Source of the DNA: Spirochaetales bacterium
GTDB lineage: Bacteria; Spirochaetota; Spirochaetia; SZUA-6; RPPD01
Direction: 5' to 3'
Length of the DNA stretch: 64,000 nucleotides
Assembly (NCBI GenBank): GCA_016934415.1
Contig: JAFGSW010000101.1
Span: 204-64,203, forward strand
In this document: positions 31,780 to 55,536 of the stretch, piece after piece
How the letters are laid out: every line of letters starts with the position of its first letter
Numbering within the stretch: the first letter of the stretch is position 1
Notes under the pieces: generated by a model
Told to the model about the DNA's origin: nothing
Seen by the model: the letters and a program-made list of their open reading frames with translations, nothing else
Databases searched by the model: none
Made by a program: the position numbers and the translations under genes

Positions 31780-31810
31780 TTGTGTATGGCCTTGAAGAAC
31801 ACCACGAAGG

Positions 31811-31846
31811 ACACCCCTCGGCTTCGCTCGGGGCAGGCTCCGAACA
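31811..31846 (+). repeat. S-repeat (ACACCCCTCG..GCTCGGGGCAGGCTCCGAACA), copy 1
   Basis: Near-identical to the copies at 52061 and 53577. Inverted partner at 32151. Confidence 0.75.
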
Positions 31847-32000
31847 TGAAGGTGGGAGGAAGAAGGAGACGAGTAATGCTTTGCTTGCCGTTTCACCGTG
31901 TGCCGCGGCTTCTCTTGTGTGCGGCCTCTCAACAAACTGCCAAGAACACGCAGGATGGAAGAAGAAGGAGAAGAAGTATTATGACGAGAGCGGCGTGTTT

Positions 32001-32123
32001 TCATAGTACGAAATGATGAATACCGTTCTTGAGTTGTGTGCTTTCAAGTAATACGGGCCTCAGTTCCTTCTGTGCCTCGCGAGTGCATCCGATTACTTGA
32101 TTCAATAACTTATCAAATTCCAT
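32001..32123 (-). pseudogene. Truncated GxxExxY-family (PD-(D/E)XK-like) gene remnant
   Basis: The 40-codon ORF MEFDKLLNQVIGCTREAQKELRPVLLESTQ... matches only the N-terminus of GxxExxY proteins (..IIG.A.EVH.ELGPGLLES.Y). AT-rich. Flanked by inverted S-repeats. Confidence 0.5.
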
Positions 32124-32150
32124 TATTCCTTTATCCCTCTTCTTCGTATC

Positions 32151-32181
32151 CGGAGCCTGCCCCGAGCGTAGCCGAGGGGTG
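32151..32181 (-). repeat. S-repeat, copy 2 (inverted)
   Basis: CGGAGCCTGCCCCGAGCGTAGCCGAGGGGTG is the reverse complement of the S consensus. Confidence 0.75.
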
Positions 32182-32214
32182 CTCTCCGTTCTCTCCGTGT
32201 GCTCTGTGTCCTCC

Positions 32215-38058: not shown

Positions 38059-41000
38059 TCACCTTCCTCCGGGTATTCGGTTTGTCCCTGATTTGTATAT
38101 TGATTGACGATGTCCTGCGGCACGCCCGCGCCGCTGCCGTCCTGCCCGTAGACGAGCGGGCGGTAGCGGACTGGCAATCCATCGCCGCCCGAGGCCGGAT
38201 CGTCGCCGTAGACGGCCAGGTAGTAGGTCCCCCTCGCGAGCGTGCGGAAGAGGAGCGTGCCGGCGCCGAGGAGCCTCGAGCCCGCGTCATAAAGCTCGGC
38301 GCGGAGACGGTCGGCCTCGGCGGACAGGCCGACGCCGACCCCGCCCGGTTCCGTTACCTCGAACGCGAAGACCTGCGCCTCGCCCTTGCCGATGAAGAAA
38401 TCCTTCTCGTCGTTTTTACCCGACAAGGCGACGGGTCGGACGCGGGCGAGCGAGAGCGTGCCGCGGAGCGACGAGTCCTTGATGGGACGGACGTGGATTT
38501 CGTAATCGCCCTTCGCCAGACGTTGGACGATCGGGGACCGCGGCGCTTCCAGGCCCGAGCGTACGGCGAGCACACGGCCGTTGGCGGAGCCGCCCGAAAG
38601 GGCAATCACCCCGGGGCTGGTCGTCGTGATCACGGCGAAAGCGTCCGCGTCCATCCTGAAGGAGTAGAGCGCTTCCCCGCCCGAAAGCCGTTCCGTTCCG
38701 GAAATCGGCTTCGCCTTCAGGCCCCGGCTGCGGCCGGCCAGATCTTCGGCCTCTTGGCCGGCCCGGCTGAAGAAGACGGAAATCCAGCCTTTCCCGTGCG
38801 TGATCTCGAGGTCGCCGGGCTCGGCGGGAAGCACGGCGACGTCGGCCGGCCCTTCCTTCCGGACCGGTCGGGAGATCCTGCCGTCGCGCCCGAGGAGCCT
38901 GGCCCCGAAACCGTCGCCGGCGAGACAGAGCGATTCCTTTTCGTGTCCGGCCGGTATGGACACCGTCAGGCGGCCTTCGCCCGGGAAGACGGTTTCGATC
39001 CCCGCCGCGTCCAGAATCGGGGAGGGGGCGTCGCTTGAGTTTGAAACGATCGCCTTGACGGCCGCGTCGGCCGCGCCGTAATTGGCGATCACGAGCGTGC
39101 CGCCGGTCACGGCGAAGGTGACGTCGCGGTTGGCAGCGTCGGCCGCGGCCATCGTCAGGGGCTCGCCGCTCCGCCACACCGCGGCGGCGCAGCCGCGCGA
39201 GAGGAGGACCCGGAGAACCTGCGCGCCCGCGTCGAGATCGAGCCTGAGGGCGCGGCCCGGGTCGAGGAGCCAGGTCCGCGTCTCGCCCTTGCCGAGACGC
39301 CCAGAGTCTGCGGGCAGGCGGACGAGGCGGACGTTCACGCGCGCGTCGGCCCGGCCGGCGGCGACCGGCTCCGGGTTCCAGAGCCTCGCCTGGTACGCTC
39401 CCGAGGGCGGGAAGAGCACGAAGGTTTTATTGTCCGACTCGTCCATGCCCCTGAAATCGTACTTGTCCTTTTTATAGCGGCCGCGCGGCGCGAGCGAGAG
39501 GCCGCAGGGCTTGTCCTCGGTTTCCGCGGTCAGGAGGAAGGCGTCGCTCCGGCCGGGGTCCGCGAGAAAGGAGTGCGGGATCGATCCGACGAAGACGGTC
39601 CGGCTTTCGCCCGCGGCGATCGAGGCCGGCTCGAAGCGCACGCCCGGGACCGTCCCGCCCGCGGCCGAGACGAGATAGCCGCGGCCGCCCGGCCCGGTCG
39701 CGATCCAGGCGCCGGGGGACAGGCACGGCGATTCGGGGCCGGTTGAATAGAGAACGCGATCGGCCTTGTCCGCGATCCTGTAGCTCAAACCGTGGCGGTT
39801 GTCGAGGGCCAGGAATTCCGGGCAATCGAAGGCGCGCGGAGAATCGGACAGCTCGACCGATCGGGGGACGGTGTAGGCGACCGTCGCCTTCACGGGCTGC
39901 GGCCGGTCTTCGGACTGCCGGATCTGAAGCGTGTAGGCCCGGCCCTTGTACAGGGGCACCGCCAGGAAACCCTCGCCCGCGGCGAGGAGCTCGGTCTCAC
40001 GGTACAGGCCGAACTTCACGGCCCGGCCTTTCTCGGCCCTGACCGAGAGCACGCCTTCCGCGTCGGGGCGGACCGGGATCTTCAGGATTTCCCGGCCCAA
40101 TGACTGGTCGACGGTGAAGGGAAGCTTCCGCTCCCCGAGCGGATGTTCCGCGTTGACGGCCATGGCGACCGTCGACCCGCCCGTGACGGAGCCGGCCGGC
40201 TCGATGCGAAGCAGGTAGCGGCCGGCGCCGAGTCGCTGGGTGATGCGGAAGTTCCAGTCGTTTTCCGCGTCGTCGTTCTCTGCGATGAGATGGTCGCCCG
40301 TCTCGTCCCAGAGCGAGGCCTTGAAATCCCCCTCGCCCGAGCTTGAAAAATCGTAGACGCCGTCGCCGCCGGTGCTGACGACGAAGGAACCCGCGCCGTA
40401 TCCGAGCTCGTAGACGAGCCCCGAGGCGAGCATGGCGGTGGAAACGCCGACCGTGTATTGGAACAGGTTGCGTTCCTCCTGCGGGCTCACCGCGAGCTCG
40501 TAGGCGCCGGCCGGAAGGTCGAACGACTGCGCCGGGCCGCCGGCCAGGCGCACGGGCTCGGCCAGGGACTGCCCTTTCAGCTCGCCCTGCATGCCCGTTG
40601 AGAGAGAGGCGGCGACCGAGAGCGGCGCGGGCAGGACGAAGGCGAACACGTCCGGCGCGCGCCCGGGCGTCTCCTTCCAGACTCGGCTCCGCCGGTGGTT
40701 GAGCTCCAGGTCGAACCGCTTTGCATTCTCGTCCTCGGCCGCGGGGCGGATGATCCGGGCGAAGGTCGTGAGGCGGCGGGTGAGGTAAGGAACCGGGAAC
40801 GAGAAATAGACGTACGAGCCGCGATCGAGCTCGATATCGGTCCCCCGGTTGCCGACGGCGATCGGAAAGCCTTCGGCGTCCTCAAGGCGGAAGGGGAAAT
40901 TGACGCCCAGACCGAGCGTGGTGATCGCGTAGCGCCCCTGGATCGCGGCGGACAACGCGTAGCGCAGGCCGACGTCCGATTCGACCGTCCGGCGGCTTAT

Positions 41001-43244
41001 CGCGTCGGGCTCGAGCTCTCCGAGATCGGTGAACTCGGTTTTCCTCAATACGACGCCGGCCCGGCCGCGGCTTTGGCCGCGCGCGCTCACCGCCACCAGG
41101 TAATCGCCCGGCTTCAGGTAGGTCATGATGAGGGCGTTCCGGCCCTCGCCGTTCTCCCCGGCCTGAACGAGCGAGGGGACGAGCGGCGTACGCACGGAGA
41201 GGCCCATCGAAAGGCGGCCCGTCGTCTCGATCCGGTAGAGGGACGGCACGGCGACGCGCAGAAGAACATTGCGGGTCTGGCCGCGCTCGAAATCGGCGTA
41301 ATACGGGCGGCCCTCGGTGAAGACCGGAAAGGTGTCTTCGAAGGCTTTCAGGACCGGCTTGGGGAATCGCTGCAGGGAAAGGGCGTCCGCGGCGTAGAGG
41401 GTGATGAGGTCGGCGCGCTTGGCTTGATTGGCGAGGGTGAAGGTGTACGTGCCGGGGCGTAGGGGTGATCCGTTTTCGGCCTTTTTCCCGGACACGGTGA
41501 GCGAATACTTTTCCCCTTCGACGGAGAGAACCGAATTCTTCTCCACCCGCACGCCGACGGTCACGTTCTCACCGGGGGCGAGCGTCGCGGAGAGGGGGAC
41601 CTCCAATGAAAGCGGCAGCTCGCGCACGTCGACGCCGACGGCCGCGTCGGAGCGGGAGTTGAGCGTGAGACTCGCGCTTGTTTTTGCCGGCACCTCGACC
41701 GCAGGCCAGGCGACCGCGGATTGCGGCTCGGGCGGGTCGAGCTTCAGCAGGTCGGCCGGCTTTCGGCTGCCGTCCCTGTACACGGCGAAGTGCAGAATGC
41801 CGAGCGAGGCCGGTTGAAGGTCGAGGGAATAGAATCCCCGCACGAGCTCGACGCTCTTGTCCGGGGTCTTCCACTCGGCTTCGACCCCCCTCGTGAACCG
41901 GTTCTCAAGCAGGGTGAAGCGGTAGCGGGCCTTGCCCCCCGCGGTCGCGCTCTCCGCGACCCGGTAGGCGCCCGGCGTCTCGATGAAAAGGTACACGGAG
42001 TTGTTTCCGAGGAGATTGACCTTGCGGATGAAGGGCGAATTCGCGGAAACCCGGATCGCCCCCTCTTTCAGGAAGGAAACCTTCCGGTTGGAGCTCGTGT
42101 AGATGAGCGGGGTGAGGTCGATGAGGTCCCGGGCGGCGTGCCCGGAGACGGTTGACACCCAGAAGGTTTTTTTCGCCTTCCTGTCGTAGGGCAGGGAACC
42201 GGCGCCGCGTTTGAAGAAACTCACCTCCAAAAGGTCGCCGGGCCCGGCCTCGACCACGAGCCATTTTCTTTCCGACGAGCTCCGGGAATAGAAGGAGCAC
42301 CACGGCTCCTTCGATTTCTTGGTGATCTCCGCGCTCGACTGCAGCCGGTAGCGGCTGCGGTCCTTGCCGTAGTACCCGGCGCCGATCCGTGTCTGCTCCA
42401 GGGCGTCGCGCACGCACTCGACGTAGTCGGCGCTCCCGGCGATGAGGTAGGCGTCGCGGCCGAACGGCGAGATGCGCAGCTTCTGCGCGCCGTTCGAGCC
42501 CAGGAACCGCGCCCCGCGGCGCAGGAGGAGTTTTGTTTCCCCGCTTTCGTCGGTCCAGGCCCGCGGCTTCCCGCCGGCGCAGACCAGGAGGTAGTGGCCG
42601 GCTTCGAGGGTGCTGTGGAATTCGGCGAAGAGCGCGGGCCTTCCCTGTTCCGGCTCGCGCTCTTCGTAATCGGGCCTGACCGCGGTGAGCCACTGGCCGT
42701 TTTGCCAGAGGGCGCAGGATTGGAGGGCACGGCCCATCACCTCCAGGCGGAGCTCGTCGCGCCGGGGAAGGTAGATCCAGTAGGAACGGGTGGCGAGGTC
42801 GCCGAGGGTGGTTTCGACGAAATCGCCGTCGTAGAGAAAGGGGTAATCGGCGATCGTGGCGGCGGCATTGGCTTCGGTGAAGGGGAGCACCGCAAGCCCG
42901 GCCGGGGCCTTCGCGTCGCGGTCGGGGAACAGGTTGACGCGGTATTCGCCCGGGTCGAGGAGAAGGTCGATCCGCCCGTCGCGTTCGCCCGGCGCCCCCG
43001 AGCGCGCTCCGATGACGCCGGCCATCCGGTCGACGAGCTCAAGGGCCGTGCCCGTCTTGCTTGTCGTCCGCAGGCTGTAGTAGCCGCGCTCCCGCACCGT
43101 GAGGAGGGTGCGCTGGAGGTCCGAGGGCGCGAACGCGGTCTTCGCGAGCGACGCCGGGTCGGCCGCGAAGAGCGAGGCCGCGATCGGGAAATAAAGGGCG
43201 ATGCACAGGATCGATCTGAGATTGCCGCCGCCGGGTCTTTTCAT
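38055..43244 (-). CDS. Giant secreted protein of repeated PPC-like beta-sandwich modules, function unknown
   Basis: 1729 aa. RBS GAAGGGGGA. Signal peptide ...ASLFAADP. At least a dozen G-x-Y-x-[LVF] strand signatures (PGEYRV, AGHYLL, PGDYLV, AGRYLL, RGTYYL...). One module, ENDDAENDWNFRITQRLGAGRYLLRIEP, closely resembles pre-peptidase C-terminal domains. Confidence 0.85.
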   Translation of the reverse strand: MKRPGGGNLRSILCIALYFPIAASLFAADPASLAKTAFAPSDLQRTLLTVRERGYYSLRTTSKTGTALELVDRMAGVIGARSGAPGERDGRIDLLLDPGEYRVNLFPDRDAKAPAGLAVLPFTEANAAATIADYPFLYDGDFVETTLGDLATRSYWIYLPRRDELRLEVMGRALQSCALWQNGQWLTAVRPDYEEREPEQGRPALFAEFHSTLEAGHYLLVCAGGKPRAWTDESGETKLLLRRGARFLGSNGAQKLRISPFGRDAYLIAGSADYVECVRDALEQTRIGAGYYGKDRSRYRLQSSAEITKKSKEPWCSFYSRSSSERKWLVVEAGPGDLLEVSFFKRGAGSLPYDRKAKKTFWVSTVSGHAARDLIDLTPLIYTSSNRKVSFLKEGAIRVSANSPFIRKVNLLGNNSVYLFIETPGAYRVAESATAGGKARYRFTLLENRFTRGVEAEWKTPDKSVELVRGFYSLDLQPASLGILHFAVYRDGSRKPADLLKLDPPEPQSAVAWPAVEVPAKTSASLTLNSRSDAAVGVDVRELPLSLEVPLSATLAPGENVTVGVRVEKNSVLSVEGEKYSLTVSGKKAENGSPLRPGTYTFTLANQAKRADLITLYAADALSLQRFPKPVLKAFEDTFPVFTEGRPYYADFERGQTRNVLLRVAVPSLYRIETTGRLSMGLSVRTPLVPSLVQAGENGEGRNALIMTYLKPGDYLVAVSARGQSRGRAGVVLRKTEFTDLGELEPDAISRRTVESDVGLRYALSAAIQGRYAITTLGLGVNFPFRLEDAEGFPIAVGNRGTDIELDRGSYVYFSFPVPYLTRRLTTFARIIRPAAEDENAKRFDLELNHRRSRVWKETPGRAPDVFAFVLPAPLSVAASLSTGMQGELKGQSLAEPVRLAGGPAQSFDLPAGAYELAVSPQEERNLFQYTVGVSTAMLASGLVYELGYGAGSFVVSTGGDGVYDFSSSGEGDFKASLWDETGDHLIAENDDAENDWNFRITQRLGAGRYLLRIEPAGSVTGGSTVAMAVNAEHPLGERKLPFTVDQSLGREILKIPVRPDAEGVLSVRAEKGRAVKFGLYRETELLAAGEGFLAVPLYKGRAYTLQIRQSEDRPQPVKATVAYTVPRSVELSDSPRAFDCPEFLALDNRHGLSYRIADKADRVLYSTGPESPCLSPGAWIATGPGGRGYLVSAAGGTVPGVRFEPASIAAGESRTVFVGSIPHSFLADPGRSDAFLLTAETEDKPCGLSLAPRGRYKKDKYDFRGMDESDNKTFVLFPPSGAYQARLWNPEPVAAGRADARVNVRLVRLPADSGRLGKGETRTWLLDPGRALRLDLDAGAQVLRVLLSRGCAAAVWRSGEPLTMAAADAANRDVTFAVTGGTLVIANYGAADAAVKAIVSNSSDAPSPILDAAGIETVFPGEGRLTVSIPAGHEKESLCLAGDGFGARLLGRDGRISRPVRKEGPADVAVLPAEPGDLEITHGKGWISVFFSRAGQEAEDLAGRSRGLKAKPISGTERLSGGEALYSFRMDADAFAVITTTSPGVIALSGGSANGRVLAVRSGLEAPRSPIVQRLAKGDYEIHVRPIKDSSLRGTLSLARVRPVALSGKNDEKDFFIGKGEAQVFAFEVTEPGGVGVGLSAEADRLRAELYDAGSRLLGAGTLLFRTLARGTYYLAVYGDDPASGGDGLPVRYRPLVYGQDGSGAGVPQDIVNQYTNQGQTEYPEEGE

Positions 43245-43457: not shown

Positions 43458-44567
43458 ATGAAAGACATCCCCCGTCACTCAGGCTCAACCGACGTCACCC
43501 CGGAAGAGGCGGGATTTCATTCGCCCCGGCTGGACGCGCTCGACTCGTTCTTCGCCCGGCTCATCGAAAAGAAGCGATTGCAGGCCGCGGGCTTCCTCCT
43601 GGCCCGGCGCGGTAAAATCTTCGCTTCGCGGACCCTGGGAAGCCTCGCGCCGGACGATCCGGGGCGATCTTTTCTCCCGGATTCGCTTCTGGCCGTCGGC
43701 CCGATCACGCAGGCGGTCACGGCGGTCGCGCTCTTCACGCTGATGGAGGCGGGACGGCTCACCCTGGAACAACCGGTGAGCCGCATGATCAAGGAATTCG
43801 ACACGGACCAACATCGGAAAATCGCCGTCTCCCATCTTCTGAACCATACCGCCGGGCTCGCCCCGGACGCCGGTTTTTTTCACGAGCCCAACCCGGCGCG
43901 GGCGCCCCGCTTTCGGAACATGAGGGATTTCCTGCGCCATGCCCTCCGCGGGCCGCTTCTCGCCCCGCCCGGCGAGCGCTGGGCTCCGTGCGCGAACGGC
44001 TTCGTCGTGCTGGGCGAAATCATCGAACGCGTTTCCGGCGTGACGTACGAGGACTACGTCCGGCGGGCCGTGCTGGAGCCGCTGGGGATGGGCGATACCC
44101 ATTTCACCGTTCCCGAGGAGAAGCGGGACCGGCTGTGCCGCACGGGGAAAAGAATGAGCTCGCGCGGAAAGGGGAAAAACATTCAGGCCGCCGATTCGGG
44201 ACTGCATTCGACGCTTCCGGACCTTTTCAAGTTCGGCCGAATGATGCTCGGCAACGGCCGGCTGGGCGATGCGCGCGTTATCAGTCGGAAATCGGTGGAG
44301 AAGATGACCTCGAACCGGCTCCGCCACCTGTCGGCGGAAGAGGGTGCGATGCGGCTCGACCCCAAAAAATACGGCTTCGGCTGGTCGATCCTATCGCTGA
44401 GCATCGTCTCACCGTCCGCCTTCGGTCTCGAGGCGCCCGGCCGGGCTTCCCTGCTGATCGACCCCGAGGAGGATCTCGCGGCCGTCTTTTTCACCCCGGC
44501 CGCGGGTCCGCCGGCGCCGGAGGCCCTCACCGTTCCCCCGGCCGTCGTCTGGTCCGGACTCGAGTAA
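43458..44567 (+). CDS. Beta-lactamase-family serine hydrolase paralogue with degenerate active site
   Basis: Aligns along its full length with the next gene, but SxxK is replaced by P-I-T-Q (43701-43712) and the motif-2 Tyr is Pro (WAPCANGF vs WSYSSLGF). Confidence 0.8.
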   Translation: MKDIPRHSGSTDVTPEEAGFHSPRLDALDSFFARLIEKKRLQAAGFLLARRGKIFASRTLGSLAPDDPGRSFLPDSLLAVGPITQAVTAVALFTLMEAGRLTLEQPVSRMIKEFDTDQHRKIAVSHLLNHTAGLAPDAGFFHEPNPARAPRFRNMRDFLRHALRGPLLAPPGERWAPCANGFVVLGEIIERVSGVTYEDYVRRAVLEPLGMGDTHFTVPEEKRDRLCRTGKRMSSRGKGKNIQAADSGLHSTLPDLFKFGRMMLGNGRLGDARVISRKSVEKMTSNRLRHLSAEEGAMRLDPKKYGFGWSILSLSIVSPSAFGLEAPGRASLLIDPEEDLAAVFFTPAAGPPAPEALTVPPAVVWSGLE

Positions 44568-44579
44568 AGGAGCAGGCCT

Positions 44580-45689
44580 GTGATCACCGAAGGCAAAACC
44601 GACATCACCTGCCGCGAGGCGCGCTACAATCCGGCGACCGTCGCCGCCCTGGACGATTTCTTCACGCGGCTCATTGCGGAGAAAAAGATCCAGGCCGCCT
44701 GCTATCTCCTGGCGCGGGGCAACGGGATCTTCGCGCATAAGTTCATGGGCGGTCTCCGTTTCGACAAGCCCGACCTGCCCTTCCTGCCCGGCTCGCTGCG
44801 CAAGATCGCGTCCATCACCAAGGTGTTTACCGCGCTCGCCGTCATGCGGCTTGCGGAAGACGGGCTGCTCTACCTGGAAAAGCCCGTCGCGGACTTCATC
44901 CCCGAGTTCGACACGCCCCTGCACCGGGGTATCACGGTCTGGCACCTCCTCACCCACAGCGCGGGACTGAAGGCCGATCCCGGATATTTCCTCGAGCCAT
45001 ACCCGCTGTGGGCGGACATGAAGTGCCTGGACGATCTCATTCATTTCGCCGTGGAGGGCCCGCTCCAGTCCCGGCCCGGGGCGACCTGGTCGTACAGCTC
45101 GCTCGGCTTCGTTCTGCTTTCCGTAATTATCGCCCGGGCGGGCGGCATGCCGTACACCGAGTACGTGGAACGGGAAATCCTCAAGCCTTCGCGCCTGAAC
45201 GACACGCACTTCCGCGTGCCCGAAGACAAGATCGACCGGGTCTGCTTCACGCTCGAGTATGAGTTGAAGGAGTTCGATAGGATGCAGAGCGGGAAGACGT
45301 TCTTCCTGGGCGGGAGCGGACTCACCTCGACGCCCTATGACCTGTTCCGCCTCAGCCGGCTCCTGCTTCAGAAAGGCACCCTCGACGGAGTCCGCGTGTT
45401 GGGGAGAAAGACGATCGAGGCCCTGGTGCGCGACCAGTTCAACCCGGCCACGACCGCCTATTGCTGGGGCATGAACCTCAAGCCGATGGAATACGGCGCC
45501 GGCGTGAGCATCTCGCTGGGAGGGATCATGAGCCGGTTCGTCTACAACCACGAGGGCTACGGCCGCTGCACCTTCTTCGCCGACCCGGAGGAGGATTTCA
45601 CCGCCGTCTTCTTCGTCCCCACCGCCACCCACTGGCTGCCCGAGATCATCGAGAACCCGCGCTACATCATCTGGTCCGGGATCGAGTGA
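44580..45689 (+). CDS. Beta-lactamase-family serine hydrolase (class C / esterase-like)
   Basis: GTG start. Intact SxxK (ASITKVF) and the Tyr motif (WSYSSLGF). Confidence 0.85.
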   Translation: MITEGKTDITCREARYNPATVAALDDFFTRLIAEKKIQAACYLLARGNGIFAHKFMGGLRFDKPDLPFLPGSLRKIASITKVFTALAVMRLAEDGLLYLEKPVADFIPEFDTPLHRGITVWHLLTHSAGLKADPGYFLEPYPLWADMKCLDDLIHFAVEGPLQSRPGATWSYSSLGFVLLSVIIARAGGMPYTEYVEREILKPSRLNDTHFRVPEDKIDRVCFTLEYELKEFDRMQSGKTFFLGGSGLTSTPYDLFRLSRLLLQKGTLDGVRVLGRKTIEALVRDQFNPATTAYCWGMNLKPMEYGAGVSISLGGIMSRFVYNHEGYGRCTFFADPEEDFTAVFFVPTATHWLPEIIENPRYIIWSGIE

Positions 45690-45913: not shown

Positions 45914-47041
45914 ATGAAAAGAACGATTTCAATGACAATGGCGACAGCGCTCATGACTTTCTTGCTTCTGTCGATCGGCTGCGGGGCGCCCGGTCCGTCC
46001 GCGCCGGCCGCCGGATCGCTCGACTACGGCGGACGGTATGCCGATCCGAACGTCAATGGCGCATGCTCCGTCGCGGTATCGCCCGACGGGGAGAACGTCT
46101 ACGTCGTCGCCGTGCCGGAAGACGCGGTGGCGTGGTTCACTCGCGATCCGGACACCGGCGCACTCGCGTACGGCGAAAGATACGCCAACACCGCCACTAT
46201 CGATTATCCGCTATCCGTCGCCGTGTCTCCCGGCGGAGAACACGTCTATGTGGCGGCCTTTGAAGCGGACGCGGTGGCGTGGTTCGCGCGGCAGCCGTCG
46301 ACCGGCGCGTTGGTGTACGGATCAAGATATTTCAGCGCTACGATATTAAACGGCGCCAACTGCGTCACGGTTTCCCCGGACGGCGCGCATGTCTACGCCA
46401 CGGCGTACCGGGCCACCACCGATCACCACGTGGCATGGTTTACGCGGGATGCGGTCACCGGCGGACTGTCGGCGATGGGAAGCTACGGCAGCGCGTCGAC
46501 CATCGGTGGGCCGTTTTCCATCGTGATATCGCCCGACGGTCTGCACGCCTATGTCGCGGGCAATGTCGCGGATACGGTGGCCTGGTTCACGCGGAACGCG
46601 ACGAGCGGGGCGCTTTCCTATGTCGATCATTATGAGAACAGTATGGAGATCGACAGCCCGCGCTCCCTTGCCGTATCTCCCGACGGGAAGCATGTCTACG
46701 TGACGGCTGACTCGAACGACGCGGTGGCGTGGTTCACGCGAAACGCGGTGAGCGGCGCCCTTTCATACGGCGGGAAATATTCGCACGTGAATCTCGATAA
46801 CCCCTCTTCCCTCGCCGTATCGCCGGACGGGCGGCACGTGTACGTGGCGTCCAATATGACCGACGCGGTGGCATGGTTTGCGCGGGACGAGGCGAACGGG
46901 GCCCTCACCTATGTCGGGCGCTACAGCAATGAGGCGACAATCAACGGTCCCCGCTCCGTGGCCGTGGCGCCCGATGGGAAGCACGTCTATGCCGCGGCCG
47001 AATATTCCGACGCGGTGGCGTGGTTTGCCAGAAACAACTGA
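45914..47041 (+). CDS. Seven-bladed beta-propeller lipoprotein (lactonase-like repeats)
   Basis: RBS AAGGAAGGAG. Lipobox LLSIGC. Seven ~48-aa units of VSPDG.HVYV....D.VAWF.R....GAL.Y. Confidence 0.8.
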   Translation: MKRTISMTMATALMTFLLLSIGCGAPGPSAPAAGSLDYGGRYADPNVNGACSVAVSPDGENVYVVAVPEDAVAWFTRDPDTGALAYGERYANTATIDYPLSVAVSPGGEHVYVAAFEADAVAWFARQPSTGALVYGSRYFSATILNGANCVTVSPDGAHVYATAYRATTDHHVAWFTRDAVTGGLSAMGSYGSASTIGGPFSIVISPDGLHAYVAGNVADTVAWFTRNATSGALSYVDHYENSMEIDSPRSLAVSPDGKHVYVTADSNDAVAWFTRNAVSGALSYGGKYSHVNLDNPSSLAVSPDGRHVYVASNMTDAVAWFARDEANGALTYVGRYSNEATINGPRSVAVAPDGKHVYAAAEYSDAVAWFARNN

Positions 47042-49895: not shown

Positions 49896-50006
49896 ATGGG
49901 AAAAGAACAGAACTCGAGAAAAGAGATCAAGCGGAAAGCGGCGAAGACGCTGAAAGAGAAACGGAAGGAAAAGAAAGTAAAGAAGGCCTCCCGGCAGGAT
50001 GGTTGA
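49896..50006 (+). CDS. Small lysine/arginine-rich protein (36 aa)
   Basis: MGKEQNSRKEIKRKAAKTLKEKRKEKKVKKASRQDG. RBS GAGAAGGAG 5 nt upstream. Confidence 0.35.
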   Translation: MGKEQNSRKEIKRKAAKTLKEKRKEKKVKKASRQDG

Positions 50007-50144: not shown

Positions 50145-51146
50145 ATGCTCAAGGAGAATCTGGTCCGGATCGCGGCGGTGCTCGGGGCTTTGGCGGCGCT
50201 GGTTGCGCTGGTGACGGCCTTCGGCCTGGCCCTGGCCCCGCGCGCCCAAGCCAAACCCGAAGACTATCTCGCCTATTCGCTCGAGGGCCTGGATCAAGTG
50301 CCCGAGGATAAAATCCTCTATAGAGAAGCGGAGCCCGTCAAAGTCCCGGCCGGCGCGGACGATTCCCTCGCCGGGCTCTGCCTCCTGCCCGACGGCGGAT
50401 CGGCGTTGAGCGGCGGCTCGTCGATATTCGTTTTTGACCGCTCTCGAACCCTGGTACGAACATTTTCTGTCGGTGCGCCGGCGGTCGCCCTGTGCGTCAA
50501 ACCGGGAACAACACCCCCCGCCCTGTACGTGGCAATGCGCGACCATCTCGAGATCTGGTCCGTCGACGGCCGGAAGCTCGATGAATGGACGAGCCTGGGA
50601 GAGAAGGCGCTCATCGCGTCGATCGCGGCCTCCGGGAGCGCGGTCTACGCGGCCGACGCGGGCGATAAAAATATCGTTCAGTACGACACGGGCGGCCGGC
50701 TCATCCGGTTCATCACTCTGAAAGCCGACGGCGGCGATTCCGGCTTCCTCATCCCCGGCGCGTATTTCGACGTTGCTTTCGGCGACGGATCATTGTGGGC
50801 GGTCGACCCGGGCCGCCACCGAGTCTGCAAGATTTCCCCTGACGGGGAAATCCTCGCGGCCTGGGGCAGGACCTCCGCCGAGCTCGACGGGTTTTGCGGC
50901 TGCTGCAATCCGGTGAACATCGCCCTGTTTCCGGACGGTTCCTTCGCCGTCCAGGAAAAAGGCCTGCTCCGCATCAAGCTGTACGACCGGACCGGCGCGT
51001 TCCAAGGCGTCGTCGCGGGGCCCGCAAGTTTTCACCCCTCGGTGAAGTCATTGGATCTCGCGGTCGGTTCGGGCGGAACGGTGTACGCGGCGGACTCGCA
51101 TCTGAAAGAAGTCCGCATTTTCACGAGGAAAGGGGCAGGGCGATGA
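50145..51146 (+). CDS. Membrane-anchored beta-propeller protein (NHL/SMP-30-like) with CGCC motif
   Basis: N-terminal TM anchor. Repeated blade-like segments. FCGCCNP at 50895-50906. Stop overlaps the next start (ATGA). Confidence 0.75.
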   Translation: MLKENLVRIAAVLGALAALVALVTAFGLALAPRAQAKPEDYLAYSLEGLDQVPEDKILYREAEPVKVPAGADDSLAGLCLLPDGGSALSGGSSIFVFDRSRTLVRTFSVGAPAVALCVKPGTTPPALYVAMRDHLEIWSVDGRKLDEWTSLGEKALIASIAASGSAVYAADAGDKNIVQYDTGGRLIRFITLKADGGDSGFLIPGAYFDVAFGDGSLWAVDPGRHRVCKISPDGEILAAWGRTSAELDGFCGCCNPVNIALFPDGSFAVQEKGLLRIKLYDRTGAFQGVVAGPASFHPSVKSLDLAVGSGGTVYAADSHLKEVRIFTRKGAGR

Positions 51147-51421
51147 GAATCTCCGCGGTCGACCGGCACGGCGCCGGAGTGACGACTTCCCGGACGACTT
51201 CGCGGACTATCTCGCGGCGAGAGTTCGTGAAGACTGCGGGCCGGGTGCTTTTGGGCGGAGCGCTCGGCCTGCTCGGTGCCTCCCTCTTCGCGAAAGCCGT
51301 CTCCGGCGCCGGGGGGTCGTGCATCAATAACTCCTCCTGCCGCACGTGCGGCTTAAGATCCGACTGCAACCTGCCGCAGGCGCTCTCCTTCCGGGACAGG
51401 TTCGGGGGGGCTAGGCGATGA
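51143..51421 (+). CDS. Small Tat-signal protein with 4-Cys C-terminal peptide
   Basis: Twin-arginine motif SRREFVKTAG, an h-region, and AKA-VSG. The ~40-aa mature part has C-x6-C-x2-C-x5-C. ATGA-coupled at both ends. Confidence 0.65.
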   Translation: MRISAVDRHGAGVTTSRTTSRTISRREFVKTAGRVLLGGALGLLGASLFAKAVSGAGGSCINNSSCRTCGLRSDCNLPQALSFRDRFGGARR

Positions 51422-52023
51422 AATCGAAAAAACCCGGCAAGAACCCCAAAAAGAAAATGACGCGTCGGGAGTTTCTCAGGGTCGGCGCGCGCGCCGGACT
51501 GGCCCTGGGCGCGGCCGGGGTCGCGGGCGGTGCGTTCCTCCGCGGCCGGCAGACGGCCGATCTTCGCTGGCAGCTCGACCCGGACAAGTGCATCCAGTGC
51601 GGCCGCTGCGCCACCCACTGCGTGCTTACGCCCTCGGCGGTCAAGGCCGTTCACGCCTACGACGTCTGCGGCTACTGCGAGCTCTGCTCGGGCTACTTCA
51701 AGCCGAACGCCCTCCTCCTCGACACGGCCGCGGAAAACCGGCTCTGCCCGGTGAGCGCCATCAAGCGCACCTTCGTCGAGGACCCGTATTACCAGTACAC
51801 GATCGATACGGACCTGTGCATCGGGTGCGGCAAGTGCGTCAAGGGCTGCCAGAGCTTCGGCAACGGCTCGCTCTTCCTCCAGGCGATGCACGACCGCTGC
51901 GTCAACTGCAACGAGTGCGCCATCGCCCGCGCCTGTCCCGCCCGGGCCTGGACGCGCCTGCCGGCCTCCGCGCCGTACATGCTCAAGGGGAAGAGCCGCG
52001 GGAGTGGCGATGCGAAGAAATAG
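51418..52023 (+). CDS. Tat-exported multi-[4Fe-4S] ferredoxin (NapG/MauM-like)
   Basis: Tat motif TRREFLRVGA. CIQCGRCATHC, CIGCGKCVKGC and CVNCNECAIARACP, plus an extra CGYCELC. Confidence 0.85.
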   Translation: MKSKKPGKNPKKKMTRREFLRVGARAGLALGAAGVAGGAFLRGRQTADLRWQLDPDKCIQCGRCATHCVLTPSAVKAVHAYDVCGYCELCSGYFKPNALLLDTAAENRLCPVSAIKRTFVEDPYYQYTIDTDLCIGCGKCVKGCQSFGNGSLFLQAMHDRCVNCNECAIARACPARAWTRLPASAPYMLKGKSRGSGDAKK

Positions 52024-52054
52024 CCGCCGTAGATTACTCTTCACAGGCCTTCCG

Positions 52055-52239
52055 AAGAGGACACCCCTCGACTGCGCTCGGGGCAGGCTCCGAACACGGA
52101 GAGAGGAGAAGAGTACGAAGAGGGAAGAAGAGGGAAGGGAAAAGAAAAGTTTAGGAAAAAAACTCCGTCCTCTTTCTTCGCTTTTTCCTTCTTTCTTTCT
52201 TCGTGTTCTTCGTCCTCTTCGTGGTCTTCGTGTCCTCTT
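52055..52239. repeat. Palindromic MITE-like element filling an intercistronic gap (contains S-repeat copy 3 at 52061-52096)
   Basis: 10-bp terminal inverted repeats AAGAGGACAC (52055-52064) and GTGTCCTCTT (52230-52239). The internal purine-rich arm is complementary to the pyrimidine-rich arm. Confidence 0.7.
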
Positions 52240-52255
52240 GGGAGGGCTTACGGAA

Positions 52256-53566
52256 GTGAAGAGGCGATACGCCGTGACCCTCCTCGTCCTGGCACTCGCC
52301 GCGGGAGGAGTTGCCCACGCACAGGACCGCTTCCCGCGGCCGGAGTTCAAATCGGACTACGCCACGCCCACCCTCCAGGTGCCGAACGCGCCGGACTCGG
52401 TGTATGAATTCATCGACCTGGGGGTCCTCGCCGCGGCCGTTATCGCCATGTCGGCGATCGCGCTCAAGCTCCGGTCGCGGAACGCGATCTTCGTCCTGTC
52501 GATCGCGAGCCTCGTCTATTTCGGCTTCATCCGCCGCGGCTGCATCTGCCCGATCGGGGCCATCCAGAACGTCACCCTCGCCCTGGCCGACCCGACGTAC
52601 GCCGTGCCGCTGTCCGTCGTCGGCTTCTTCCTCGTGCCGCTCGCCGCCACGCTTTTCTTCGGCCGGACCTTCTGCGCCGGGGTCTGCCCGCTCGGCGCGA
52701 TCCAGGACCTGGTGGTCTTGAAGCCGATAAAGATTCCCAAGCCGGCGGCCGCCGTCCTGGGCGTGGTGCCTTTCCTCTACCTCGGCCTGGCCGTGCTCTT
52801 CACGGCGGCCGGAATCGGGTTCGTCATCTGCCGCTTTGATCCCTTCGTGGAGATCTTCCGCTTCGGCTCGCGCCTGGAAATCCTCGCCTACGCGGGCGTG
52901 CTCCTCGGTATCGGCGTGTTCGTGGCCCGGCCCTACTGCCGCTTCCTCTGCCCCTACGGCGCCCTGCTTTCCGTGCTCTCGCGCTTTTCGCGCCGCCACG
53001 TGACGATCAGCCCGACCGAGTGCGTCGAGTGCCGGCTCTGCGAGGACGCCTGTCCGGTCGACGCCATTCTTCCGCCGGCGGGCGGGGCCGCCGGTGGAAC
53101 CGGTGAACCGAGGCGCGCGAGCGTCCGGCGCCTGACCGTCTCGGTGCTCCTGATCCCGCTCCTCATGGCCGCGGGCGCGGCGGGCGGCAAGCTCCTCGAG
53201 GGATTTTTTGTACGCCTTTCGCCCGACGTCGCGCTTCAGACCGCGCTGGCGGCGGAAAAGGCGGCCGGGACGGCGGACGCCGCCGAGGAGACGAGGCTCT
53301 TCCGCGAGTCGGGCGAAACCGAAGCGGCCCTCGCCGCGCGCGTCGATCGCACCAAGGCCGTGCTCTCGATCGGGAGCGCGCTCTTCGGGGCCTTCGTCGG
53401 GCTCGTGATCGCCCTCAAACTCCTCGGCCTGGCGGTGCCGCCCGCCAACACGAGTTACGTTCCCGACCGGGCCGCCTGCGTGAGCTGCGGCCGGTGTTTC
53501 CGGGCGTGCCCGCAGGAGCACGTGCGGCTGCGTGGGAGAATCAACTCGCCTACAAGCCTTGAATAA
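52256..53566 (+). CDS. NapH/MauN/NosR-like membrane polyferredoxin
   Basis: GTG follows GGGAGGG. Signal/TM segments. Cx3CP motifs (CICPIG, CAGVCPLG, CRFLCPYG). C-terminal CVECRLCEDACP and CVSCGRCFRACP. Confidence 0.85.
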   Translation: MKRRYAVTLLVLALAAGGVAHAQDRFPRPEFKSDYATPTLQVPNAPDSVYEFIDLGVLAAAVIAMSAIALKLRSRNAIFVLSIASLVYFGFIRRGCICPIGAIQNVTLALADPTYAVPLSVVGFFLVPLAATLFFGRTFCAGVCPLGAIQDLVVLKPIKIPKPAAAVLGVVPFLYLGLAVLFTAAGIGFVICRFDPFVEIFRFGSRLEILAYAGVLLGIGVFVARPYCRFLCPYGALLSVLSRFSRRHVTISPTECVECRLCEDACPVDAILPPAGGAAGGTGEPRRASVRRLTVSVLLIPLLMAAGAAGGKLLEGFFVRLSPDVALQTALAAEKAAGTADAAEETRLFRESGETEAALAARVDRTKAVLSIGSALFGAFVGLVIALKLLGLAVPPANTSYVPDRAACVSCGRCFRACPQEHVRLRGRINSPTSLE

Positions 53567-53778
53567 ACCACGAAGAACACCCCTCGACGGAGTTCATCCC
53601 GAGCGCAGCCGAGGGACTCGGGGCAGGCTCCGAGCACGAAGGGGGAAAGAAGAGGAAAAGTGAGAGAATGCTTTGGGAAAAAACACAAGATCAGAATGAG
53701 TATACAAACATGAGCGATATTCTCTTTTTTTCATTTTCTTTCTTCCACTTCCTTCGCGTACTTCGTGTTCTTCGTGGT
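53567..53778. repeat. Palindromic MITE-like element filling an intercistronic gap (contains S-repeat copy 4 at 53577-53636)
   Basis: Perfect 14-bp terminal inverted repeats ACCACGAAGAACAC (53567-53580) and GTGTTCTTCGTGGT (53765-53778). Starts at the first base after the stop codon. Confidence 0.75.
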
Positions 53779-53808
53779 GTTTTTGAAAGCCGGATAGAGG
53801 AGTGAATC

Positions 53809-55536
53809 GTGAAGATCGATAAACCGGAACTGATACTCTCCCTCACGCGCTCCCTTTTCGGGATCGGCGTCACGGCTGTCATTTTCTCGGCGCTCGTCGG
53901 CCTCCTTTCCGCGGCCGCTTTTTTCCAGCTCAAGCTTCGCGATCCGCTCGCCAGCCCCGCGCTCGTCGTGTTGTATGAACGCCTGCGCGAAAATCCCGAG
54001 GACCGGGCGATCAAGGACGAGATCCGCGACCTCGACCTCCTGGCCCGCCGGGCCTATTTCGCGAGCCGCGGCCAGGTGACCTCGGGCGGGATTCTCGTGT
54101 TCGCCGGGACGGCGGTCTTCGTCCTGTCCTTCGCCGCGCGTGAGGCGCTGCGCCGGAAACTTCCGGCCTCACCCCGGGGCAAGCCGCAGCCCGCCCTCCC
54201 GGCCGTCCGCCTCCGGGCCAGGGTCCTGGTGGCGGCCGGCGGGATCGCGCTTCTCGCCGGCGCTTTCCTCCTCGTGTTCGCGGTCGCGCCGTTCATGGAC
54301 TCCTTCCGGATGGCCGCGGCCGTTCCTGAAAAGCCCGCCGCGAACGGCGCGCCGCCCGAATCCGCTTCCCCCGCGAGCGCCGCCCCGGCCGCGCCGGTCG
54401 AAGCAGCCTGGCCCAACTACCGCGGGCCCGGCGGCCGTCTCATTGCGCCTCCCGGCGAATACCCGACCGCCTGGAACGGCGCAACCGGCGAAGGAATCGT
54501 GTGGCAGGCGAAGCCGAGGCTGCCCGGGAACAATTCTCCCGTGGTATTCGGCGGTCGGGTCTTCGTGTCCGGCGCGGACAAGACCGGCGCCGAAATCTAC
54601 GGCTACGACGCGGCCGAGGGGAAGCTTCTCTTCACCGCCAGGGTCGCCTTCAGCCCCGCGGGGCGCGCGGCCAAGGTCGACGAAAAATACGTCGGCTACG
54701 CGGCGCCCACCCTCGCCGCCGACGGCCGGTACGTGGCCGGGATTTTCGCGGGCGGGGACGTCGTCTGTCTCGACCATGACGGGAAAATCCTCTGGCAAAA
54801 AAACCTGGGCACGCCGCTGCTCAATTACGGGTACGCCTCGTCGCCCATCGTCTGGAACGGTCTTCTCATCGTCCAACTCGACTGGGAAAGTTCGCCCCGG
54901 TTGCTCGCCCTGGACCTCGCCTCGGGAGAGCCGCGCTGGGAAACGAAGCAGGACGTGTTTTCCTCCTGGGCCTCGCCGGTCGTGGGAGAGAGCAGGGGCA
55001 AACCGGCGGTGTTCGTCTCGACCAACCCGTACGTCGCGGCGTACGACGCCGCCACCGGCGCCGAGCTCTGGAGCGCGGACGTCATGACCGGCGAGATCGG
55101 CTCGTCGCCGGCCTTCGCCGACGGCGTCGTTTTCGCCGGCAACGAGACGGCCGTGCTCGCGGCCTTTACAGCCGACGATGGGAAACAACTCTGGGAGTAC
55201 TACGAGGACCTCCCGAGCGTCGCGAGCCCGGCCGTGAAGGACGGCCTGCTTTTCATGGCCTCGGCCGCCGGTGCGGTCACCTGCGTGGATGCCGCGACGG
55301 GGAAAGCCGTCTGGCGTGAGGAATTCACTGACGGCTTCTATTCATCCCCCGTCATTGCGGGAGACAAGCTCTACCTCACCGACCGCGAAGGGGTCACGCA
55401 CATCCTCGGCGCGGCACGCGCCTACGCGCCCGTCACCGCGTGCTCCTTGGGCGAGCCGGTCGACGCCACTCCCGCCTTCGCGGACAACCGGATCTACATC
55501 CGGGGCAAGACGAACCTGTATTGCGTGGGGAAATGA
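53809..55536 (+). CDS. Membrane-anchored PQQ-like (BamB-type) beta-propeller repeat protein
   Basis: GTG follows AGAGGAG. Three N-terminal TM helices. Repeated G.V....DG.L.A.DA.TGK..W blades. Confidence 0.8.
   Translation: MKIDKPELILSLTRSLFGIGVTAVIFSALVGLLSAAAFFQLKLRDPLASPALVVLYERLRENPEDRAIKDEIRDLDLLARRAYFASRGQVTSGGILVFAGTAVFVLSFAAREALRRKLPASPRGKPQPALPAVRLRARVLVAAGGIALLAGAFLLVFAVAPFMDSFRMAAAVPEKPAANGAPPESASPASAAPAAPVEAAWPNYRGPGGRLIAPPGEYPTAWNGATGEGIVWQAKPRLPGNNSPVVFGGRVFVSGADKTGAEIYGYDAAEGKLLFTARVAFSPAGRAAKVDEKYVGYAAPTLAADGRYVAGIFAGGDVVCLDHDGKILWQKNLGTPLLNYGYASSPIVWNGLLIVQLDWESSPRLLALDLASGEPRWETKQDVFSSWASPVVGESRGKPAVFVSTNPYVAAYDAATGAELWSADVMTGEIGSSPAFADGVVFAGNETAVLAAFTADDGKQLWEYYEDLPSVASPAVKDGLLFMASAAGAVTCVDAATGKAVWREEFTDGFYSSPVIAGDKLYLTDREGVTHILGAARAYAPVTACSLGEPVDATPAFADNRIYIRGKTNLYCVGK

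Follow-up and report, generated by a model that had tools for sequence, protein, structure and literature searches.

NapH-like proteins constitute modular transmembrane electron carriers; the reactions of most of them are unknown, and the described set is defined by ApbE flavinylation (Meheust et al. 2021, PMC8238504). These extracytosolic systems, which include NosR and PceC/RdhC, share the Fer4_5 domain (PF12801) with the locus described here and use it as a plug-in membrane carrier for diverse, mostly uncharacterized periplasmic partners. NapGH of E. coli and Wolinella, and NosGH of the clade II nos clusters, likewise pair a four-cluster ferredoxin, exported by the twin-arginine translocation (Tat) pathway, with a polytopic CX3CP protein bearing two C-terminal CxxCxxCxxxCP motifs, and their presumed role is transmembrane or membrane-to-periplasm electron transfer. 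The mau clusters also contain NapG/NapH homologues (MauM and MauN), situated beside a propeller and a small Tat-exported, Cys-rich subunit. Here, we describe a related five-gene locus in a Spirochaetales bacterium, located at positions 50145-55536 on the + strand of the window, the 64-kb stretch of contig JAFGSW010000101.1 that was analyzed. The five co-directional genes encode an NHL β-propeller, a small Tat-signal protein, a NapG-like ferredoxin, a NapH-like membrane protein and a PQQ_2-type β-propeller. We tentatively propose, as a reading that falls a little short of an even chance, that their products form a membrane-bound complex sending electrons from the cytoplasm, via the NapH-like and NapG-like proteins, to a vicinal cysteine site on the NHL propeller.

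Organization and conservation of the gene cluster

A preliminary description, made from the sequence alone, had reported the five co-directional genes, and all of them are present on the + strand as described. It had also stated that ATGA overlaps chain the first three, and direct reading of the sequence places these overlaps at 51143 (NHL gene and small protein gene) and 51418 (small protein gene and ferredoxin gene). The ratio of nonsynonymous to synonymous substitution rates (dN/dS), computed against one relative at 69-86% identity, lies between 0.19 and 0.32 across the locus, and all five genes are therefore under purifying selection.

To place the locus in a wider context, species-representative genomes were searched with the FxGCCNP-type motif [ED][GE]FxGCCNP of the NHL protein, and the matches were confirmed as NHL relatives; at least 588 such relatives carry the F-x-GCCNP motif. 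The loci surveyed are the best 80 of these at least 588 genomic loci, each taken with 10 kb on either side, and 10 metagenome loci (~90 together). Open reading frames (ORFs) were called with a simple longest-ORF script, with high-GC shadow ORFs corrected by direct phmmer searches, and the gene-like ORFs of 83 loci were all clustered into neighbor families. The order NHL, small Tat protein (not always present), NapG-like, NapH-like, PQQ_2 is nearly universal. It occurs in Bacteroidota, Planctomycetota, Verrucomicrobiota/Kiritimatiellia/Victivallales, Spirochaetota and Aminicenantes, and further in Latescibacterota, Calditrichota, Chlorobiota, Armatimonadota and Anaerolineales. Because the same order recurs in ~90 loci from many phyla, the gene set lies far beyond chance. 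NHL homologues at only 28-29% identity still adjoin NapG-like and NapH-like genes while other parts vary, and the NHL propeller is the most constant partner of the pair.

In most genomes the cluster is larger than in the window. Among the 49 loci whose downstream sequence extends for at least 8.5 kb, phmmer places two proteins directly after the module in 45: a NuoE/F fusion protein (~785 aa, comprising NuoE, NuoF and a 2x[4Fe-4S] domain) and a GltD-like flavoprotein (~525 aa, with an N-terminal NuoG-type [2Fe-2S] domain). Across the 83 clustered loci, these are the only recurrent neighbors with a recognizable catalytic function. The preliminary description had connected the module to the quinol pool, a premise that is not borne out: the NuoE/F-GltD linkage suggests a donor other than quinol, and since the pair follows the module in 45 of 49 loci, the usual donor is probably cytoplasmic NAD(P)H. 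Only the five core genes are found in the window and in its close relatives L001 and L002; the set in the window is a rare, reduced form of a 10-13-gene cluster. The closest named relatives of the NapH-like protein, at ~55% identity, belong to Spirochaetaceae and Spirochaetales; Spirochaetales relatives at this identity keep the full 13-gene form, and the minimal form is therefore derived.

No NapA, NosZ, RdhA, cytochrome, heme, molybdenum or copper enzyme was found as a recurrent neighbor in the ~90 loci. This agrees with the description of the NapG/NapH-like pair as an orphan, in which the architecture matches that of NapG/NapH and no molybdo-, heme- or copper-oxidoreductase is encoded in the window or in the related loci. 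A lack of co-conservation, or a canonical catalytic subunit such as NapA or NosZ in relatives, had been named beforehand as grounds for discarding this view, and neither was encountered. The same survey bears on the possibility that the locus is what remains of a Nap, Nos or organohalide respiratory system after loss of the catalytic subunit. The Joint Genome Institute (JGI) annotations, which name the membrane protein 'NosR/NirI family', would fit such an origin, to which we nevertheless assign hardly any probability: NapA, NosZ and RdhA are missing from ~90 loci, profile scores fall far below the Nap and Nos cut-offs, and all five genes are under purifying selection. A Nap, Nos or Rdh fragment was accordingly rejected on the basis of the neighborhood survey.

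Several loci carry further genes around or within the cluster. Five same-direction genes precede it in some loci of different phyla (L029 1884-8448; also L026, L077, L041, L034, L074 and L003), encoding a Fer4 protein, a radical SAM protein, a DUF116-polyprenyl synthase fusion, a prenyltransferase-toroid protein and a squalene-hopene-cyclase-like protein, all below curated cut-offs. A link of these isoprenoid-type genes to an isoprenoid-derived lipid or cofactor is possible. In Bacteroidales loci, IS200-type Y1 transposases and PD-(D/E)XK genes are repeatedly inserted between cluster genes, for example between PQQ_2 and NuoEF, with reading frames intact (L028 15007-15540, L062 14699-15226, L079 15445-16020, two copies in L054, and L076 11690-12076). 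IS200 transposase, PD-(D/E)XK, Fic/RhuM and AbiV genes, which occur in some loci, were set aside as mobile or defense insertions and not as parts of the system.

The NHL and PQQ_2 propellers

The NHL protein (50145..51146, +) consists of 333 amino acids and is the candidate terminal subunit of the module, either catalytic or substrate-binding. Hydropathy reveals a single N-terminal transmembrane helix or signal anchor (aa 4-34). The Pfam NHL model is matched at threshold (20.2 bits against a cut-off of 20), and profile searches recover the NHL domains of TRIM, Thin and Brat proteins with E-values of 1e-19 to 1e-15. The AlphaFold2 (AF2) model has a mean predicted local distance difference test score (pLDDT) of 92.4 and is six-bladed; its best Foldseek matches are the NHL domains of Thin, TRIM2/3/71 and Brat, with TM-scores of up to 0.79. 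The protein thus has the six-bladed fold that defines NHL proteins. The gene has a dN/dS of 0.23. Relatives are numerous, with 92 in a protein collection clustered at 90% identity and 2,836 representatives of 50%-identity clusters matching the family profile at E<=1e-30, more than 150 of which are ~330-aa proteins at E<1e-103. An NHL protein described in the literature within the Huc hydrogenase operon is unrelated.

The preliminary description had characterized this propeller as membrane-anchored and carrying FCGCCNP, and both the single N-terminal helix and the motif (aa 250-256; 50892..50912, +) are confirmed. Alignments of 25 and 89 homologues delimit the conserved positions. In the 89 homologues, F250, G252, C253, C254, N255 and P256 are invariant, and so are D171, G184, G223, G234, E271 and K272. 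According to the secondary structure that DSSP assigns to the AF2 model, GCCNP lies in a loop directly before an innermost blade strand, and the DAG and EKG segments occupy inter-strand loops. Loops that precede or join the inner strands usually form the active face of a propeller. We propose the vicinal pair C253-C254 as a putative redox, sulfur or metal-binding site. One homologue (P0068) has a Tat signal in place of the transmembrane anchor, which supports a periplasmic location of the NHL protein. A Pfam search of the NHL protein gave no GSDH signal, and soluble glucose dehydrogenase (sGDH) is not found among the 50 Foldseek matches listed; a six-bladed pyrroloquinoline quinone (PQQ) enzyme of the AA12/sGDH type (bioRxiv 10.64898/2026.07.10.737718) was rejected as an identity for the protein on these grounds.

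The fifth gene (53809..55536, +) encodes a membrane-anchored BamB/PQQ_2-type β-propeller of 575 amino acids. A membrane-anchored, PQQ-like propeller had been predicted here, in agreement with the PQQ_2 match (E 1e-37) and three N-terminal transmembrane helices. The propeller part spans ~375 aa, the anchor loop fits the positive-inside rule, and the gene has a dN/dS of 0.23. Across 58 orthologues, conservation is mainly confined to repeat-structural residues and two Cys, and the protein is a probable scaffold or partner subunit. The number of propeller paralogues varies from 1 to 8 per locus, with up to seven further paralogues in Bacteroidales. Upstream of the NHL gene there is usually one encoding a 476-aa PQQ_2 protein, and the GltD-like gene is followed by one encoding a PQQ_2 protein of ~370 aa. 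The ~476-aa upstream protein (L005 8347-9843, L023 8497-9924 and 61 others) is missing from the window. Unlike the other propeller paralogues, it contains enzyme-like motifs (KRxHGxSRTxPA, PxWYxGQCP, HSSxxP and TAGYG) and seven conserved Cys.

These features allow for a different assignment of roles, in which the Fe-S module itself is functional, reducing an unlinked periplasmic enzyme or diffusible acceptors such as O2 and reactive oxygen species, quinones and humics, or metal chelates, and none of the propellers, the NHL protein included, is catalytic, all serving as scaffolds or assembly factors. The purely structural conservation of the PQQ_2 propellers, the exclusive match of the NHL fold to binding-type NHL domains and the variable number of propeller paralogues per locus are all in line with this explanation. 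Against this stand the invariance of GCCNP, D171 and EK over more than 89 NHL sequences, which points to a specific functional site, and the linkage of NHL, NapG-like and NapH-like genes, which is unbroken even in the most divergent loci. We regard a purely scaffolding role of the propellers as unlikely, yet worth serious attention.

The ferredoxin and the small cysteine protein

The NapG-like ferredoxin (51418..52023, +) comprises 201 amino acids. Alignments reveal a conserved Tat motif, TRREF, and 16 invariant Cys arranged in four [4Fe-4S] motifs, recognized by Fer4 families. Tat export had been anticipated correctly, and the earlier estimate of three to four clusters is refined by the 16 conserved Cys to four. 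The only match in the PDB is a 152-aa hydrogenase Fe-S subunit (E 6e-7).

The small protein (51143..51421, +) consists of 92 amino acids, its gene overlapping that of the NHL protein by ATGA. It contains the twin-arginine motif SRREF (RREF at aa 25-28), a hydrophobic stretch and then the pattern C-x5-C-x2-C-x5-C-x-LPxA, in which C60, C66, C69 and C75 are all invariant. These observations match the Tat-signal, four-Cys peptide of the preliminary description, which also holds in that the protein has no Trp. Neither a Pfam family nor a PDB relative, including MauA and QhpC, was found for it, and the radical-SAM target family TIGR04117 is matched weakly (25 bits against a cut-off of 50). Of 76 loci, ~67 encode the protein. 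Seven Bacteroidales loci encode it as a translational fusion with the N-terminus of the ferredoxin, where it takes the place of the ferredoxin's own Tat signal and positions the four-Cys knuckle ~12 residues before the first cluster motif; in ~9 loci it is absent and the NHL gene abuts the ferredoxin gene. Since it is fused in seven loci and absent in ~9, the small protein is best read as an accessory Fe-S/metal-knuckle or anchor domain of the ferredoxin, and not as a catalytic small subunit or the precursor of a ribosomally synthesized and post-translationally modified peptide (RiPP). Many copies have no obvious signal-peptidase site, and so the Tat signal may be retained as a membrane anchor. 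As for Tat substrates in general, export by this pathway would suggest a cofactor that is inserted before translocation, in the cytoplasm. Both the propellers and this peptide had been considered candidate terminal partners of the electron chain; the NHL propeller keeps that candidacy, and the peptide, which behaves as a ferredoxin accessory, loses it.

The earlier comparison with quinoprotein amine dehydrogenase loci raises the question of an enzyme analogous to methylamine dehydrogenase (MADH) or quinohemoprotein amine dehydrogenase (QHNDH), or of a RiPP system; the small Tat Cys peptide would then carry a cross-linked cofactor or be the product. The superficial layout of a propeller, a small Tat Cys-rich protein and MauM/MauN-like genes, together with the weak TIGR04117 match, recalls such systems, but the resemblance does not hold: MauG, QhpD, QhpE, QhpG or another maturation gene are not present, and radical SAM genes occur in only ~4 of 83 loci, there together with the isoprenoid genes, and not in the window. 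The small protein, moreover, has neither Trp nor a PDB relative, and is fused or missing in the loci given above. With no maturases, and with a small protein that some loci lack or encode as part of the ferredoxin, this reading was rejected as very improbable.

The NapH-like membrane protein

The ORF of the NapH-like protein opens at 52004, and its first 84 codons cross a dispersed hairpin repeat. The true start is most likely the GTG at 52256, with the 84-aa extension being spurious; this start gives a signal peptide and a length of 436 aa (52256..53566, +), comparable to the 428-442 aa of the orthologues. The protein is a member of the NapH/NosR superfamily of membrane Fe-S proteins. Hydropathy predicts a signal peptide or initial transmembrane helix followed by ~7 transmembrane helices, and Fer4_5 matches in two stretches (55.6 bits against a cut-off of 22, E 5e-15). 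Fifteen invariant Cys are common to 66 orthologues. Those of the membrane part form a GCxC motif (C96, C98), a first CX3CP motif (C140, C144), C192 accompanied by D195, and a second CX3CP motif (C228, C232). The two CxxCxxCxxxCP motifs (C256-C266 and C408-C418) make up a 2x[4Fe-4S] domain split by a hairpin of two long transmembrane helices. CX3CP motifs after transmembrane helices and C-terminal CxxCxxCxxxCP motifs are the features expected of the superfamily, and the NapH/MauN-type polyferredoxin of the preliminary description is thus recovered with an additional GCxC motif. The AF2 model has a pLDDT of 86 and no fold match in the PDB (best Foldseek E 0.44), where sequence matches are confined to generic ferredoxin motifs. 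Database names of relatives are equally generic, namely '4Fe-4S binding protein', 'polyferredoxin' and 'NosR/NirI family'.

Hydropathy, the positive-inside rule and the AF2 helices were combined to derive the topology. They suggest that the N-terminal RFPxPxF segment is periplasmic, with GCxC and C192 near the periplasmic face, and that both CX3CP motifs and the split ferredoxin domain are on the cytoplasmic side. This predicted layout would place redox sites on either side of the membrane.

Proposed path of electrons

The proposal of a membrane-bound electron-transfer complex builds on the observed gene content, motifs, co-conservation, lack of a classical catalytic subunit, small-protein fusion and NuoEF/GltD linkage; from these we infer the topology, the direction of electron flow, the role of the NHL protein as terminal enzyme and the chemistry. 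Statements about cluster faces and Cys positions draw on the DSSP strand order and hydropathy of the AF2 models. The split 2x[4Fe-4S] domain of the NapH-like protein would be the cytoplasmic entry point for electrons. Their donor would be the co-encoded NuoE/F-GltD-like NAD(P)H flavoprotein in most genomes, and in the lineage of the window an unlinked homologue, reduced ferredoxin or quinol. Membrane crossing could proceed on clusters ligated by the CX3CP, GCxC and Cys192 motifs, after which the Tat-exported four-cluster ferredoxin would take over the electrons, with the small four-Cys Tat protein extending or anchoring it. The presumed endpoint is the top face of the membrane-anchored NHL propeller, where Cys253-Cys254, together with Asp171 and Glu271-Lys272, would form the reactive site. 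As a guess in keeping with the known behavior of vicinal dithiols, the chemistry that we consider most plausible is reductive, with a disulfide, persulfide or polysulfide as substrate, or else a thiophilic metal(loid) bound at the Cys pair. The three-helix PQQ_2 propeller could serve as a scaffold or substrate-presenting partner. The module would be periplasmic, because Tat signals are found in the small protein, the ferredoxin and one NHL homologue and the PQQ_2 anchor has a positive-inside loop.

Several points weigh against this proposal. C251 of FCGCCNP is variable: several homologues, the closest relatives among them, have Y, S, T, G or V at this position, which leaves the vicinal pair C253-C254 as the constant feature. 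The predicted position of Cys253-Cys254 on the top face derives from strand order. The NHL protein has no recognizable cofactor site, and its fold matches are non-enzymatic NHL domains only. The NuoEF/GltD NAD(P)H module is absent from the 64 kb of the window. In many genomes the linked GT4 glycosyltransferase, MacB-like ATP-binding cassette (ABC) exporter and extra propellers hint at an envelope role beyond that of a simple reductase. Electron flow from the inside to the outside dissipates membrane potential, making energy-conserving respiration unlikely; on these bioenergetic grounds, a reductive service such as detoxification, repair, maturation or fermentative electron disposal would be the likelier function.

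The envelope connection deserves separate mention. GT4 glycosyltransferase genes and LolD/MacB-like ABC exporter genes with a ~1100-aa duplicated FtsX permease are linked to the cluster in Planctomycetota and Spirochaetales (L087 5405-21323, L088, L003/L005 1-9990), suggesting an envelope or glycolipid-export connection; one phylum has them downstream and the other upstream. The redox chain could then supply the reducing power with which an exported component (a glycolipid, a lipoprotein or an envelope protein), handled by the GT4, the MacB-like exporter and the propellers, is matured, isomerized or repaired; it would thus act as an Fe-S-based functional analogue of DsbD. BamB-like propellers and a vicinal Cys pair that could be a thiol-disulfide catalyst are in line with such a system, as is the recurrence of these genes at differing positions in two phyla. 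Yet the GT4 and ABC genes lie within 10 kb in only 11-15 of 86 loci and are absent from the window, where the core is under purifying selection, so that we judge a dedicated role in envelope biogenesis or maintenance to be quite unlikely.

Electrons could in principle also flow inward, with a propeller oxidizing a periplasmic substrate and the NapG/NapH-like pair passing the electrons to quinone, or to NAD(P)+ through NuoEF/GltD. NuoEF/GltD-type modules are reversible in principle, and NapH-like proteins also occur with oxidases such as ExaA (PMC8238504). The propellers, in turn, fail the PQQ-dehydrogenase models (TIGR03075, 50.5 bits against 480), a GSDH/AA12 signal is lacking, sGDH does not appear among the Foldseek matches listed, and cofactor-biosynthesis genes are not linked. 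The reduction of NAD(P)+ would, in addition, need a donor of very low potential. Inward flow is, in our assessment, highly unlikely.

Returning to outward transfer to the NHL propeller, it is possible, though rather doubtful, that the NHL(GCCNP)-NapG-NapH core represents an unrecognized and very broad class of periplasmic reductases, in which a cofactor-poor NHL protein would be catalytic through its Cys pair, reached by an Fe-S wire and fed mostly by NAD(P)H, bypassing quinones. Despite its presence in at least 588 species-level genomes, the cluster lacks a curated family and a solved structure, and the literature searched contains no paper on it. Full-text searches by gene, family and product-name terms found no description of the gene set, and neither the NHL protein nor the small protein nor the cluster is covered by a dedicated model in Pfam or NCBIfam (June 2026). 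Sediments, wastewater and guts are the habitats of the carriers, most of which are uncultured anaerobes that degrade polysaccharides or ferment (Bacteroidales, Planctomycetota, Kiritimatiellia, Spirochaetota, Aminicenantes and others). If NAD(P)H electrons are exported in this manner, the cluster would add an unrecognized term to the redox balance of these organisms, with a possible tie to sulfur or metal cycling or to oxidant defense, and would offer a clean system for studying how NapH/NosR-type proteins move electrons across the membrane. A reductase of this kind would amount to an Fe-S-based export route for reducing power in anaerobic FCB (Fibrobacterota-Chlorobiota-Bacteroidota), PVC (Planctomycetota-Verrucomicrobiota-Chlamydiota) and spirochaete lineages, and its terminal reaction could prove to be new chemistry. 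The five-gene form in the window is the smallest natural version found in the loci surveyed, which makes it a convenient target for reconstitution.

Dispersed repeats and flanking genes

The only long gaps inside the operon are occupied by two copies of a repeat of ~200 bp, each of which folds as a long hairpin. Copy 1 (52024..52255, +) lies between the ferredoxin and NapH-like genes (RNA fold -109 kcal/mol, z -5.4), and copy 2 (53567..53808, +) between the NapH-like and PQQ_2 genes (RNA fold z -3.2). Further copies are present at ~31827 (+) and 32145 (-), giving four in the window against 0 expected by chance. The repeat consists of a core, CTCGGGGCAGGCTCCGA[AG]CACG, followed by a purine-rich GAAGAG arm and a complementary CTTCGTGTTCTTCGT arm. 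It could be an element resembling miniature inverted-repeat transposable elements (MITE) or repetitive extragenic palindromes (REP), or an mRNA-stabilizing structure. The gap between the NapG-like and NapH-like genes of the relative L001 is likewise purine/pyrimidine-rich, and a search for the core motif in all 88 fetched loci found no copy.

The flanking genes scanned (38055-63969) encode β-lactamase-family hydrolases, a lactonase-type propeller, a cytidine deaminase, a NUDIX protein, a β-CASP nuclease and sensor proteins; no redox enzyme was found among them on either side. Elsewhere in the 64-kb window, homologues of NuoEF, GltD, GT4 and FtsX were not found, except for a generic ABC ATPase. 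An Rfam scan of the window found no rRNA, tRNA or other Rfam family. The lactonase-type propeller (45914-47041, +) is a lipoprotein-type, seven-bladed protein of 375 aa with seven highly regular ~48-aa repeats (…SPDGxHVYVAxxxxDAVAWFxR…), and is not kept beside the cluster in L001. It is preceded by tandem paralogous β-lactamase-family (PF00144) serine hydrolases of 369 aa each (43458-44567 and 44580-45689, +). A 36-codon Lys/Arg-rich ORF (49897-50006, +; MGKEQNSRKEIKRKAAKTLKEKRKEKKVKKASRQDG) lies in the 500 bp upstream of the NHL gene and may be noise or a small basic protein. On the opposite strand (29413-43244, -), a PBP1C-type penicillin-binding protein with transglycosylase, transpeptidase and BiPBP_C domains adjoins two giant ORFs, one of 1947 aa and one of 1729 aa, the latter with no Pfam match at E<=1e-5. 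Relatives of both giant ORFs are also found upstream of the cluster in L001 and L002.

Comparison with known systems

Family membership was assessed with Pfam and NCBIfam at model cut-offs, and folds were compared with Foldseek. By the curated hidden Markov model (HMM) cut-offs, the proteins do not qualify as NapG, NapH, MauN or NosR equivalogs. The ferredoxin shares the Tat signal and four [4Fe-4S] motifs with NapG; the NapG and NapH models, however, are matched far below their cut-offs (NapG NF007012, 17.7 bits against 269; NapH NF007013, 52.9 against 234; TIGR02163 (NapH/MauN), 53.5 against 213), and neither napA, napB and napC nor NosZ is linked. The NapH-like protein further differs from its NapGH and NosGH counterparts in its signal peptide, its extra GCxC motif and the transmembrane hairpin between its two ferredoxin motifs, and it usually has a NuoEF/GltD NAD(P)H module encoded nearby instead of relying on quinol. 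NosR is defined by linkage to nosZ and by an FMN-binding domain, neither of which is found here (no FMN_bind; NosR NF046105, 46.6 bits against 1000). The flavinylated NapH-like systems carry an ApbE-flavinylated FMN-binding domain (PMC8238504), whereas the present cluster has no FMN domain or ApbE and uses a NapG-like ferredoxin, a four-Cys protein and propellers.

Among quinoprotein systems, the mau clusters differ in containing MauG, MauD, MauE and MauF, none of which is present here, and in their seven-bladed MauB, compared to the six-bladed NHL protein. MauA contains two Trp that form tryptophan tryptophylquinone and ~12 Cys, and MauG is a di-heme protein; the small protein described here has no Trp and four Cys, and is dispensable or fused. 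The radical SAM protein QhpD, the protease QhpE, the flavoprotein QhpG and the dihemic QhpA of the qhp cluster were not found in the window. PQQ-dependent dehydrogenases, whether eight-bladed alcohol dehydrogenases or six-bladed sGDH/AA12 enzymes, are likewise set apart by the TIGR03075 score and the lack of GSDH and sGDH matches given above, and by a propeller domain of no more than ~375 aa. The best family match of the 575-aa propeller is the PQQ_2 family of BamB. BamB itself is an eight-bladed outer-membrane lipoprotein, and its model is matched below cut-off (TIGR03300, 97 bits against 285); the present protein is predicted to reside in the inner membrane, has three transmembrane helices instead of a lipobox and belongs to a redox cluster.

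Two further comparisons concern function and domain content. DsbD/CcdA, as a functional analogy only, likewise moves reducing power derived from cytoplasmic NAD(P)H to periplasmic thiol/disulfide targets, but DsbD does so through cysteine-pair cascades and not Fe-S clusters, and has no sequence relationship to the cluster. The Stn/Nfn-type transhydrogenases and NADH-dependent hydrogenases contain the same domain set as the full cluster (NuoE [2Fe-2S], NuoF FMN/[4Fe-4S], 2x[4Fe-4S], NuoG-type [2Fe-2S] and GltD FAD/NAD(P)H); in the genomes surveyed, however, the partners encoded with this module are a membrane Fe-S carrier and periplasmic proteins, not a hydrogenase or soluble ferredoxin. As a whole, uncharacterized NapH-like systems are already recognized as a class, and what is new here is a conserved set of partners for a NapH-like electron-transfer module.

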